64,000 nucleotides of DNA from Cyanophora paradoxa CCMP329 (Eukaryota > Plantae > Glaucophyta). How positions within the stretch are numbered: position 1 is the stretch's first letter; each line of letters begins with the position of its first letter. The stretch spans positions 1 through 64,000 of the forward strand of contig QPMI01000148.1 of the NCBI GenBank assembly GCA_004431415.1, in the 5' to 3' direction. Positions 22,796-35,660 of this stretch are shown here, one piece after another. The notes under the pieces were generated by a model. The model was not told the DNA's origin, made no database searches, and saw only the letters and a program-made list of their open reading frames with translations. Made by a program: the position numbers and the translations under genes.

Positions 22796-24505
22796 ATGGG
22801 CAGGGGGTGGATCCCGGCGGAGGGGAAGCTGGACCTGGAGAAGGAGGGGCGGACGGAGTGGCCGGCGGCGGAGATCGCGGCGGCGGGGCCCCATAACATC
22901 CGCGAGCTCAACCTCAGCGGGAACAAGCTCACACGCATTTCGGGGACTGAGCTCGCCAAGCTGACGAACCTGGAAAAGCTGTACATGATGAACAACCAGC
23001 TGACGGCGCTGCCGCCAGAGATCGGCTGCCTCGTCGACCTGCGGGCGCTGCGCGTGAGCGGCAACCAGCTGACGGCGCTGCCACCGGAGATTGGCCGCCT
23101 CGCCGCCCTGGAGGAGCTGTGGGCGGAGAACAACCAGCTGACGGCGCTGCCGCCGGAGATCGGCCGCCTCGCCGCCCTGAAGTCGCTGGCCGTGAGCAGC
23201 AACCGGCTGACAGCGATGCCGCCGGAGACCGGCCGCCTCGCCGCCCTGCAGAAGCTGTGGGTGCACAGCAACCCCGTCGTGGACTCATGGCCCGAGCGCG
23301 TCCGCAGCGCCGCCAGCAGGAACAGGGACGGCCTTGCCCAGTGCGCCGCCGTCCTGCCCTACTTCCGCTCCCTCTCCGCCCCCGCCCCAGCGGTGCGCCC
23401 CGCCGCCCCCGCCCCCGCGCCCACCCCCGCCTCTTACCCCTCGCCGCAGCCCGCACCCTCAGCCCCACCCGCCCCTACCCCCGCCGGCCCCGTCCCGGCC
23501 CCCGGTCCGCCCGCCCGCCCGCGCGCTCGAGCCCCCGACGCGAGCCCGCCCCGCAGCGCGCCCCGTCCAGTAGGCGCCCGGGACTGCTTCGCGAGGCGCT
23601 TGTCCCGGCCCCCGCCGCTCGCCGCCGGCCCTAACGCCGCCGGGCAGCTACGTGCACGTGGACGCGGCGCTCGTCCTCCGCTACTGCGACGCCCTCGAGG
23701 CCGCCGGAATCAAGATATGGTTTGCCCCGGACCCCCGCCCAGCCCTCCGCTCTCACCCTCGCCCGCCGCCTTCGCCCTCCGCTCATGTACCCGTGCAGGG
23801 TCGACCGCGAGCTCGAGGCGGGCCAGAGGTGGATGGCCAAGATCGGGGTGCGCTTGTCCGAGCAGGCCTTTAACCCTTACCCCCCTTGGCTTCTTCCCTC
23901 CCTTTTCCCTTGAACCGGCCCCGTCCCCGCCTCTGCACCCGTCCTCCGAACCAATCTTACGGGGCGCGGCGGGCGCAGGAGGCGATGCAGCGCTGCCGGG
24001 CCTACGTCTGCTTCCTCTCGCCAGCTTACGTCGGATCCAAGAACTGCGACGACGAGGCGCGCAGCGACCCGCCGCCCCGATCCAGGGCCAGGGCTCCGCG
24101 CCTGACCCTTAAGCAGATGCAGTTCGCCCACCACACGCTGCGCATCCCCAAGTTCCCTGGTGCCGCCGCGCCCGCCCCGCACCCTGCACCCCGCCTCACC
24201 CTCGGGCGCCAGTGTGGCTCGTCGACCCGAAGACTGTCAAGCTGCCGGTCGACTACGAGGCGCGCCCTCGCCCGCGCCTGCACCCTGCCCCGCGGTCGCC
24301 CGGTCTGACTTCTGTTCATCATCAGATGATGCTGGTGTCGGTGAACTGGACGATGCAGCGCGGGGAGGGGGCAGCGGCGGCGGACGCGGCGGCCGGCGAT
24401 CTGATCGCCGGCCTGCGCGACTTCCTGCGGCACGGGGGCTCCCGCCCCGGCCCCGGCCCCGGCCGCGCCCCCGCGGAGCAGGAGAAGTCGTGCAGCGTGC
24501 AGTGA
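22796..24505 (+). CDS. LRR-TIR protein with C-terminal CaaX (multi-exon), paralog 1
   Basis: 6 LRRs of ~23 aa. Spliced TIR DCFASYVHVDAALVLRYCDALEAAGIKIWVDRELEAGQRWMAKIGEAMQRCRAYVCFLSPAYVGSKNCDDEMQFAH..; ends EKSCSVQ*. Confidence 0.85.
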
Positions 24506-26128
24506 GGGAGCGCCCCCTGCGCGCGGGCCTCCCTCGAGGTCGAAGAGAGGCGTTCCGGGGCCTGGCACGGGGTGGGACGGGGCGGGCGGCGCTGGGAGCG
24601 CTAGGGAGCCCCAGCGCTGCGAGAGGGGCCTCTCCGTCGGCCCGGCGCCGGCCCGGCCCGAGGCGTCGCGATCGCCCCCGGGCCTTCGCTCGCCTCCCCC
24701 GGCGCCCGGCCGGCGGCCTCTCTCCCGTCGGCGGTTGTTCCCCCGGGCCCGCCGCCCGCGCCGCGACCCCCTCCCTTTCCCCTCGAGCCCCTCCCCCGCG
24801 CTGCCGCCCCGGCCAAGAAGGGGGCAAAAATTGATGACAGGCGCACGGACTCTCTCCGGTAGCCCCGACCGGCCCGCGCGCCGGCGCCGCGCTCGCCCCG
24901 AGAAGCCCGCCCAGCGGCCGCGGCCGCCCCGGAAGGGGGAGGCGGCCCATGGCCACGAAGGGGCCCCGGCGGCCCCGGCGCCTCCGCCGCGCGCGTGAGC
25001 GTCAGCGCCGGCGCGGGCGGCGCGGCGGCCGTCCTGCGCGCGGGCGCGGGGGCTCGCCGGCCGCGGGGCCGTCGCGGGCGCGGAGGGCGGCGCCGGCTCG
25101 GGCGGCGCGTGAGAAGAGGCGGGCGGGAGGGCAGCGGCAGTGGCCGAGCTCGCGCGGTCGTGGGAGGGTCCACGCACCACGCGCGCGGCGCCCGGCGACG
25201 TCGATCGGCGGCGCGTGGGAAGATCTAGAGGCGGGCCGCGGGCGTCGGGGCAGTGCTCGCGCGCGCGGTCGTGGGAATTCGAAGGTCCCGTATTCGCTGG
25301 AGCGACGTCGATCGACGCCGCCCGCCGCGGTCTCCTCCGACGCGTACGCCGCCCGGGCCCGCCGCGGCCTCCTCGAGCTAGCGCTCGCGCTCCGGATCCT
25401 CCTCCGGAGATCCGGTCCGGATCCTGCTCAGTGCAGGAGCGGCGGCTTAGCTACGCGCGGGCTGCAGCTGGGCGCTTCAGGGACGTCTACAAGAAGCAGC
25501 GCTAGCGCACTCACCGGTACCGCGCAGGCGAGCTCGAGGGCTCCTGCTCAGAGGGCCGGTTGCGGGCGTCCTCGGTTAGGCTCGCCGCGGCCGCACGCGT
25601 CTACTCGCCGCATGCGCCTGCTTGCGCGTGGCTGGGATCGAGCAAGCGATGCCTGCAGAATCCCATCTTCGCCGCCAAATTCGCCATGGTGCGTGCGCCA
25701 AATTCGCCGCTTATAGCTATATCGGCGCTAATATATGCCGCGCTAGCGGCGCTAATAGCCGCGATACCGCCGATACCAGCGATACGCTGCGAAGGGGTAC
25801 AGTTATCTTCGCCCACATCACGCTGGTTTATCGCGGGAGGTGCATGCGGAAGCCGGCGGTTTTCTGGCATTGCCGCCTCTCGCTCGCTTACAGCTCACAT
25901 GCAGCTTCGTGCACCGCGTAGCGGGCTAGCGGGCAGCAGACCCCGACGGGCGGCTCCCGCGGCTCCCGCGGTCGAGGCGAAACGTTGAAGGTGCGCGACG
26001 CCTGGCGCTAGTTGCCGCTGGGCAAATTCCGGCCGAGATCTAGAATTCGAACCTTGGAATCGTGGAAGGAGTTTAATGCGGGTCGGCGCGCTTCTACTAG
26101 CGCTGCTGATCATGACGGCCCCGCAGGC

Positions 26129-34104: not shown

Positions 34105-34997
34105 AGCAGCCGCCTGCTCGATCTTCTTTTCCGCCGAACAAACCCGATTCTTCAGCAGCTGTGCCTCAGCCTGATCGCAGTGATCACGGTAAGCCGCAGT
34201 TGTATACGTACGTGCGCGGTTGCAGTGCAGCAGCTCACCTGCAGTTCACCTGCCGTCCTTCGGAGCCACTCCTCGACACGCCCGCGTCCAGCCTCGTACG
34301 CGTTCGCGGCGCCGGCCGAGGCGGACGAGTTCGAAGACACCATTATCTGCGAGCGTACTAATTAATCGGCGATCAAAATGGCGCGGCAAGCTTGAAAGTG
34401 TTCACCTGTCAAACGCGGCGCGGCGCAGGTCGGCGCGGGTCGGCGCGGGTCGGCGCGGGTCGGCCGTACAGCGCTAGCTAAGGCTGCTGCGATCGGGAGA
34501 CGATCGCCGGTGTGCGAGCCGTCGGTGCGCCGGTGTGACGGTGAGGAGAAAATCCAGCCAGCAGCTGCGTTTGCGTTCGCTCACAGCAGCTTCCGTTGAC
34601 GTTGGTGATGCGCGGCTTCAATGAGCTCAGCGGCTTCTTCGACGACTTCGAAGTCGGAAGTGCTAGTGGCGGGGTACGTAGCTATACGGAGGTGTACCAT
34701 CGTGCTGGCAGTAGCGGGCTAGAAGAGCAGGCTAGCTATAGCAGCCAGCAGATAGCTAACTGCTGAAGCGCCGCCGAAAGCTCTGCTCTGCTGCGGCAAG
34801 GCGATCCGTCGAAGGTGCGCGACGCCGGGCGGGGGCGTAGCTCTAGCTTGGATTGCCGGTATTAGCAATACCCCGGCCCTAGCGCGTGTCGGGCGGCCGG
34901 CTCCCCGCAGGCTGCAGCTAGGGACCCGCCGGGTGGGGCGGGGGCGCGCTCCCCGCGGCGCGCTTCTGCCGCTGACCGCCTCCGAGGCTCCGCAGGC

Positions 34998-35660
34998 ATG
35001 GGCTACGGGTGGATCCCGGAGGAAGGGAAGCTGGACCTTGGGGGGGAGGGCCGGACGGAGTGGCCGGCGGCGGAGATCGCGGAGGCGGGGCACGAGAACA
35101 TCCGCGTGCTCAACCTCAGCGGGAACAAGCTCACACGCATCCCGGGGGCTGAGCTCGCCAAGCTGACGAACCTGGAGACGCTGTGGCTGCAGTGCAACCA
35201 GCTGATGGAGCTGCCGCCGGAGATCGGCCGCCTCGCCGCCCTGCAGGAGCTGGACGTGAACAGCAACCAGCTGACGGCGCTGCCGCCGGAGATCGGCCGT
35301 CTGGCCGCCCTGCAGGTACTGGACGTGTACAACAACCAGCTGACGGCGCTGCCGTCGGAGATCGGCCGCCTCCCCGCCCTGAAGGAGCTGCGGGTACACG
35401 GCAACCCCGTCGTGGACTCGTGGCCCGAGCACGTCCGCTTCATGACCTCCATGTTTATGTCCGGTGGAGCCCAGTTATCCGCCGTTGTGTTTCACCTCCG
35501 CTCCCTCGCGGCCCCCGCCGCCGCCGTGCGCCCCGCCGCCGCGTCCCCTTCGCCCCCGCGCCCTGCCCCTCACCCCGCGCCGCAGCCCGCCGCCCCAGGG
35601 TGACGTGCGCTTCTGGAGCGAGGACGACGTCGTCGCGTGGGTCCAATCTCCCGGCCGCCC
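34998..35660 (+). pseudogene. LRR gene paralog 4, truncated after the start of a SAM domain
   Basis: 5 LRRs, then GDVRFWSEDDVVAWVQS; the rest of SAM/TIR is absent and duplicated SMC6 sequence follows. Confidence 0.75.

Follow-up and report, generated by a model that had tools for sequence, protein, structure and literature searches.

A stretch of 64,000 nucleotides (nt) from the glaucophyte Cyanophora paradoxa CCMP329 (assembly GCA_004431415.1, contig QPMI01000148.1, positions 1 to 64,000; here called the window) carries four paralogous genes for leucine-rich repeat (LRR) proteins, which belong to a larger family with different effector ends. The concave face of the LRR sensor in this family is hypervariable and diversifying. 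With a probability of roughly 0.6, we regard these proteins, in which a variable LRR is combined with a TIR, SAM-TIR or coiled-coil-RING end, as intracellular sensors that form a repertoire against non-self under birth-and-death evolution. We infer an immune function for the family, which is a real and apparently undescribed variant of LRR-based variable receptors.

Results

The family in C. paradoxa

We examined the family in annotated proteins, in the window DNA and in contigs from public runs, and counted copies among the annotated proteins. The four window genes (here named G1 to G4) have LRR exons starting at 22796, 26129, 31211 and 34998. Upon alignment they share the N-terminal cap GW.P..G.L.L..G.TEWPAAEIA.AG..NI, followed by six, six, four and five repeats of 23 amino acids, respectively (Pfam LRR, E values of 1e-17 to 1e-29); four paralogs with a common cap and repeats of about this length had already been recognized in a preliminary description of the window, made from its letters alone. 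Each LRR exon consists of cap, repeats and C-cap and starts two bases past an intron acceptor, and on its 3' side a short Pro/Ala exon precedes the effector exons. The modelled introns are 50 to 131 nt long (median, 64 nt) and 6 out of 25 have GC donors, in line with the earlier remark that short introns, often with a GC donor, split the effectors.

A search with the cap yielded 14 family proteins among 50 candidates, and a TIR search contributed one further protein with the cap, along with four LRR-free proteins of TIR or SAM-TIR type. Of the 32 matches from a profile search across 1.84 billion representatives, 25 are family members and seven are unrelated repeats; P0032, P0038 to P0040 and P0042 to P0044 were dropped from the family after reading identified them as unrelated repeats. 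The family has at least 33 members, namely 32 annotated proteins plus G2, spread over 20 contigs, of which four carry several members each. None of the protein searches returned an annotated protein matching G2. C. paradoxa was the source of all 27 members looked up, and the remaining five have gene names of the same style. A search for proteins of 768 to 2190 amino acids with the cap led to 27 candidates, one of them an LRR protein from a fish that is unrelated to the family; this search was weak, since it missed long members that were found later. Overall, the family is large and fast-evolving, not small and conserved.

Judged by gene models, members end in TIR-A (nine, two of them with SAM and one a stub), TIR-B (five), SAM plus a SARM1-like TIR (five), SAM only (one), coiled coil-RING (four), coiled coil only (two) or an unrecognised sequence (seven), and they carry 3 to 10 LRRs. 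Pfam scored no NB-ARC, NACHT or Roc domain in the family proteins, precomputed Pfam lists have no NB-ARC or NACHT either, the sole P-loop motif among the 32 proteins and the G1 and G2 models lies in a myosin head, and the window genes are too compact to house an NB-ARC or NACHT domain. No membrane helix is evident either: the highest 19-residue hydropathy is 1.08 in G1 and 1.15 in G2, the family maximum of 1.83 lies outside the linker, and no hydrophobic stretch was seen at the N terminus. These scans bear out the proposal of a soluble family without nucleotide-binding (NB) or transmembrane domains. In the structure model of P0015 the linker between LRR and effector is disordered, and the AlphaFold model of a close relative shows the cap as a first, degenerate repeat. 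All matches listed by Foldseek for the full model are LRRs.

Diversification of the sensor

Repeat variation was computed on sets of 69 and of 133 internal repeats (131 distinct in the latter). Positions 5, 7, 9 and 10 have an entropy of 3.0 to 3.5 bits and occur in 118 distinct combinations, and the L/N/P scaffold positions stay at 0 to 0.4 bits across the 133 repeats. In the AlphaFold model, positions 5, 7 and 9 lie on the LRR beta-strands, which form the concave face. At the four concave sites G1 and G2 differ in 30 of 48 nt (62%) and in 16 of 16 residues, compared with 27 of 228 nt in the remainder of the same repeats. Between the TIR regions of the two genes, 42 of 381 intron nt (11%) and 22 of 434 exon nt (5%) differ; four-fold sites in the G1 and G2 repeats are 11% different, with saturation at 49%. 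The ratio of nonsynonymous to synonymous differences (pN/pS) at five exposed sites was 2.1 (bootstrap, 1.1 to 5.0; 12 repeats), an estimate made on paralogous repeats in a genome whose extreme GC bias at third codon positions (GC3) lowers synonymous counts. Entropy, the comparison of sites between G1 and G2, and pN/pS agree with the diversifying sensor that had been suggested earlier.

Effector ends and their distribution

The effectors had been described as swappable, and their range proved wider than the window, with three TIR types, two SAM types and RING distributed over the tree of the sensors. TIR types A, B and C/D are 14 to 27% identical to one another, and both SAM types are found with TIR-A and with TIR-C. 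In 21 of 21 TIR rows, the residue aligned with the catalytic position of helix C is a Glu, the row of P0036 being unsure as its model is truncated. The TIR-A fold matches the RPS4/RRS1 TIR entry with a Z score of 15.1 (root mean square deviation of 2.6, 137 aligned; VIA-align), and plant, animal and bacterial TIRs tie among its structural matches. By sequence, the TIR-A relative P0016 is best matched by the CRISPR-associated NADase Cat1 (E = 7.5e-4, Glu aligned). TIR-A also scored with anti-phage TIR models, and an Atlas search with it gave generic TIR_2 clusters, bacterial and eukaryotic, which do not fix its origin.

The SAM-TIR end of G2 had been likened to the SARM1 module. This did not hold, because its TIR type has no SARM1 among 12 PDB matches at E <= 0.1 (query, P0016); TIR-A is 14 to 24% identical to the SARM1-like members. 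A SAM with a SARM1-like TIR does occur in P0002, P0009, P0013, P0025 and P0036, all encoded outside the window. Residues 224 to 468 of P0013 match SARM1 chains at an E value of about 1e-31, with the Glu aligned with that of SARM1/TIR-1.

A tree of the sensor ends was built from 33 rows and 112 columns; seven of its 30 branches are starred, and in three starred sister pairs the effectors differ. The effector label changes 13 times on the tree, compared with 14.4 times for shuffled labels. The approximately unbiased (AU) test rejects a single sensor clade for the RING-type members (P = 7e-6) and for the TIR-A members (P of about 1e-94). By these tests, the histories of sensor and effector are uncoupled, whether by sensor recombination or by effector exchange. 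A tract of 220 nt is identical between G1 and G3, whose effectors differ.

Further architectures were observed among the annotated proteins. The same genome encodes TIR-A or SAM-TIR-A proteins without LRR (P0016 to P0019, with SAM-TIR-A in P0018 and P0019), which are possible adaptors or a donor pool of effector ends. Family modules also stand behind a myosin head in one public model (P0041 on tig00020553; myosin-LRR-TIR-A) and behind an EML double propeller or an F-box protein in two others (P0031 and P0030); these could be either real integrated domains or merged gene models. P0021, P0023, P0024, P0029, P0002 and P0034 have two or three complete cap-LRR modules in tandem per chain. The C terminus of P0011 reads as a wrong-frame TIR-A, as in a broken or misannotated LRR-TIR gene.

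Gene models and RNA contigs

When spliced by coordinates (Table 1), G1 encodes LRR-TIR-CSVQ (381 amino acids), G2 LRR-SAM-TIR-CSVQ (490 amino acids) and G3 RRM-LRR-coiled coil-RING (492 amino acids). As splice models, these three architectures stand as first proposed; G4, which had been given a truncated SAM end, is LRR-only. Via the homologous acceptor, G4 runs into a stop in exon 2, 5 codons from its start, which gives the same LRR-only protein of 181 amino acids as in the public model, and a remnant of SAM type 2 (35599-35643, about 15 codons) would be in frame solely with an acceptor at 35598. LRR and TIR follow each other in one chain, in frame, in spliced and in public models.

Pfam recognized TIR_2 (E = 1e-16), RRM_1 and zf-C3HC4_3 in the public models of G1 and G3; the one for G1 reaches the TIR by another route, minus the first TIR strand. 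The G2 SAM exons, scanned one by one, gave no Pfam match, and the SAM type of G2 scores SAM_1 in P0036. The CSVQ tail, which also ends P0015, would by its CaaX-like form be a prenylation site and membrane anchor. The join of RRM and LRR in G3 is also present in the public model P0004. All eight C3HC4 zinc ligands are present in the G3 RING (Pfam zf-C3HC4_3, E = 2.5e-8), to which the RINGs of RNF4 and CBL are the closest solved ones. An Atlas search with the G3 RRM gave scores below 0.8 throughout; we presume a resemblance to Vip1/BPA1-type RRMs.

Runs X1 to X5, which are not on record as RNA, were taken as such; in their contigs, GT-AG introns are spliced out. In one X2 contig, positions 31412-31680 of G3 are joined to 31854-32042, and the letters between them are the 61 of the linker exon, with none other. 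Hence, the LRR exon of G3 is joined to its coiled-coil exon in an RNA contig, in agreement with the joining of LRR and effector that had been proposed. An X3 contig of a paralog is spliced at the positions of the G2 TIR introns and has no SAM region. The SAM intron 27078-27142 is spliced out in X1 and X2 contigs; these differ by one letter, so the splicing may be that of a paralog. In X1 and X3 contigs, a 16-letter loose end at 22792 equals window positions 22583-22598, possibly from a close paralog. A 5' untranslated exon is thus spliced onto a G1-type start, and the AAG/GTGCGC donor found 5' of G1 is also present upstream of G2 and G4. Among the pieces listed, none lies over the G1 TAG at 23571 or, in X7, over the G2 linker exon. 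At 30435-30781, X1 and X4 contigs retain the first RRM intron of G3 (GC donor, stop inside), and another X4 piece ends at the donor of that intron; intron retention or genomic DNA in the runs is possible.

Other features of the window

A polinton/polinton-like virus (PLV)-like element adjoins the cluster, as described before, with its end near 20300, about 2.5 kb upstream of G1 instead of the roughly 3 kb first given. It encodes an A32 ATPase, a piece of a D5-type helicase, a protein-primed PolB, endonuclease VII and an rve integrase (Pfam) and has a GC content of 37 to 51%, compared with the higher-GC, intron-rich host flank. Its PolB is 29 to 35% identical to the PolB of 10 viral contigs, some of which also match its integrase and ATPase. 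A double jelly-roll major capsid gene found no match in the frameshifted element region; the frameshifted stretch at about 4200-5400 gives the impression of a possible capsid gene. Inverted repeats lie inside the element at about 10935-11185 and 18961-19638. Apart from the four genes, we found no LRR-family sequence in the window, the element included.

A spliced and transcribed gene outside the LRR family lies between G3 and G4 (33192-34659; RNA contigs in all four runs); it has minus-strand hydrophobic segments and gave no match in Pfam. Downstream of G4, a piece of a spliced gene is present as an inverted duplication (35958-36823 and 41292-42196; 88% over 920 nt) that flanks a long IQ-repeat open reading frame (37812-41225; Pfam IQ). 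The translation of the duplicated piece, which gave no Pfam match, is presumably similar to the C terminus of SMC6.

Table 1. Coordinates of the LRR genes and the adjoining element in the window
Feature	Position	Strand	Remarks
PLV-like element, low GC, heavily frameshifted	1..20300	.	Left end beyond the window
G1 5' untranslated exon end, then intron 22601-22793	22583..22795	+	Intron stops two bases before the G1 ATG
G1 LRR exon: cap, 6 LRRs, C-cap	22796..23392	+	Public model tig00000600_g2261, P0001
G1 Pro/Ala linker exons 23450-23504 and 23571 (or 23574)-23595	23450..23595	+	SAM region of G2 absent
G1 TIR-A, six exons (23648-23719, 23799-23847, 23979-24056, 24117-24159, 24213-24259, 24326-24505)	23648..24505	+	Glu in NCDDE; C-terminal CSVQ (CaaX-like)
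G2 LRR exon: cap, 6 LRRs, C-cap	26129..26734	+	Pfam, splice model
G2 linker exon 26787-26846; SAM type 2 exons 26950-27077 and 27143-27355	26787..27355	+	Splice model
G2 TIR-A, six exons, C-terminal CSVQ	27415..28262	+	93% identical to the G1 TIR
G3 RRM, five exons	30574..31108	+	At the place of the other genes' untranslated exon; phase-1 splice in frame with LRR
G3 LRR exon (4 LRRs) and 61-nt linker exon 31732-31792	31209..31792	+	Pfam, RNA contig
G3 coiled-coil exon 31855-32360 (Ala/Glu/Arg-rich) and C3HC4 RING, intron 32361-32424 inside RING	31855..32580	+	
G4: cap and 5 LRRs, stop 35601-35603	34998..35669	+	181 amino acids; public model g2265, P0022

Discussion

The family resembles several known receptors. 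Shared with plant TIR-NB-LRR proteins (TNLs) are the predicted intracellular setting, an LRR combined in the models with a TIR that has the catalytic-position Glu and matches by fold (Z score of 14 to 15), tandem clusters, changes in repeat number and diversifying exposed LRR sites. Unlike TNLs, the family has no NB-ARC, places its LRR first in a reversed order, has 3 to 10 repeats, and interchanges three unrelated TIR types or RING. The Toll-like receptors (TLRs) of animals and choanoflagellates have their LRR N-terminal to the TIR, as described in PMC6040629, an order that the gene models of the family also give. In contrast to these, no membrane helix separates LRR and TIR in the family, the LRR is predicted to be cytosolic, and the Pro/Ala linker is modelled as disordered. 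SARM1 consists of an ARM domain, tandem SAM and TIR; the five members with SAM and a SARM1-like TIR have a single SAM instead of two and a variable LRR in place of ARM, and the TIR of G2 is of another type. LRSAM1 (LRR-coiled coil-SAM-RING) shares its LRR, coiled coil and C-terminal C3HC4 RING with four members; these (P0004, P0026, P0027 and P0028) gave no SAM match, and they are multicopy and hypervariable, which sets them apart.

[quoted passage not shown] In Ectocarpus, according to the same sections, every repeat has an exon to itself and a GTPase or NB-ARC serves as the partner, whereas the C. paradoxa family has all repeats in one exon, no nucleoside triphosphatase (NTPase) and a swapped effector end. 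The family thus resembles TNLs, TLRs and the Ectocarpus candidates, yet it lacks the NTPase or membrane helix that defines them. A table in the supplement of PMC7145615 has 70 NB-encoding genes for C. paradoxa, so that NB partners acting in trans are possible, and part of the same paper reports TIR-LRR proteins in two bacteria, so that the bare domain pair is not unique to the family. The open literature, which the search covered to the exclusion of subscription papers, yielded no description of this family and none of any immune receptor family for glaucophytes. Word searches found neither LRR nor TIR in the main text of PMC6704402 (C. paradoxa genome), whose supplement may list such domains, and neither Cyanophora nor glaucophytes in the main text of PMC9806590.

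If the family does sense non-self, the ligand bound by the variable LRR face would be foreign, for instance a protein of a virus or a bacterium. Upon binding, the TIR domains would come together, with the help of SAM in the members that have one or of a CaaX tail anchored in the membrane, and in this clustered state they would start to cleave NAD+, so that a nucleotide signal is produced or the cell dies. For RING members, the outcome of binding would instead be a ubiquitinated target. New pairs of sensor and effector could arise through recombination within the GC-rich linker, and many products may be broken or LRR-only, probably G4 and possibly G1 and G2.

Several observations weigh against the interpretation as an immune repertoire with exchanged effectors. 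Most architectures depend on automatic gene models, and the conserved Glu is no proof of NADase activity. On the sensor tree, 20 of the 30 branches are weak, a single clade of TIR-B members was not rejected in the AU test (P = 0.27), and gene conversion alone could scramble such a tree. The selection estimates suffer from the use of paralogous repeats under extreme GC3 bias: by the same method, pN/pS of the scaffold is about 1.0, implying that the bias inflates the ratios, and the comparisons with introns and four-fold sites are therefore the better evidence. RNA coverage of the own exons of G1 and G2 is thin, and none of the RNA contigs listed bridges the LRR-to-TIR junction of either gene. 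The in-frame passage from LRR to TIR that had been proposed for both holds in the models, but only via nonhomologous acceptors. With the acceptor homologous to that of G2 and G3 (23556), G1 meets the TAG at 23571 and stops at amino acid 223; an acceptor at 23570 or 23573, 14 or 17 nt further on, restores the frame to the TIR. In G2, the homologous acceptor shifts the frame because the linker exon, 60 nt long (phase 0) compared with 55 nt in G1 and 61 nt in G3 (phase 1), is one base short of the homologous phase. An unusual, nonhomologous acceptor at 26949 restores it, and a long-read indel is an equally possible explanation of the missing base. Since both genes need an unusual acceptor, they may be dead or misassembled.

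Such defects would be expected of a largely neutral, recombination-prone expansion in which GC-rich repeats drive duplication and domain capture, variation at exposed sites reflects tolerance, and pseudogenes make up most of the copies. Three of the four window genes have frame problems when spliced at homologous sites, the models of 7 of the 33 members lack a recognisable effector, the tail of P0011 looks like a frameshifted TIR-A, and the identical tract of G1 and G3 fits as well. Relaxed selection does not, however, give differences at the variable sites that are five to six times as high as in introns or at four-fold sites of the same 69-nt units. Together with TIR exons that are more conserved than TIR introns (5% versus 11% difference) and spliced paralog transcripts, this makes a neutral origin quite improbable in our view. 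Somewhat less improbable, although still unlikely, is variable recognition for a non-immune use, be it self or mating-type recognition, sensing of prey or symbionts, or substrate adaptors in turnover or signalling. Diversifying binding surfaces are silent on the ligand, some models have housekeeping-type additions (RRM, F-box, EML propeller, myosin head), and the nearest solved LRRs include the signalling scaffolds SHOC2 and RSU1. Each addition, however, was seen once and may stem from fused neighbouring gene models, a concave face that binds host proteins should be constrained and not diversified, and most members with a recognisable end carry a TIR with the catalytic-position Glu, including the SARM1-like SAM-TIR.

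The adjacent element could suggest that the cluster is a dedicated defence locus or sequence that the element mobilised, since it ends so close to G1 and PLVs have been reported in C. paradoxa (in parts of PMC12220804 and PMC8502044). Yet the family genes have host GC and spliceosomal introns, members are found on 20 contigs, and the element is degraded, with no family sequence found in it. We consider a tie between the two very unlikely; their proximity is probably incidental, distance being the sole link.

Our preference for a repertoire of intracellular non-self sensors extends only tentatively, and with more doubt than trust, to a fuller proposal: a glaucophyte repertoire without NTPase switch, in which a recombining LRR library under positive selection is connected directly, and in exchangeable fashion, to TIR NADases of three kinds, each recruited independently and one of them SARM1-like, or to a ubiquitin ligase. 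If this is true, one sensor shape would kill or signal, or would tag invaders such as the alga's giant viruses and PLVs, and a variable sensor would have come to control natural SARM1-like SAM-TIR ends. Because automatic annotation can easily miss or mis-splice the effector exons, other intron-rich protist genomes may contain similar, hidden families. As small single-chain proteins of a culturable alga, the members could serve as a model for TIR switching without an NTPase. In the lineage to which plants belong, glaucophytes branch off close to the base. A family of soluble LRR-TIR/RING proteins that lacks a nucleotide-binding domain would demonstrate a coupling of variable sensors and TIR enzymes independent of NLRs and TLRs and, if the proposal is true, would represent a third route of LRR-TIR enzyme coupling, in a sister lineage of plants.

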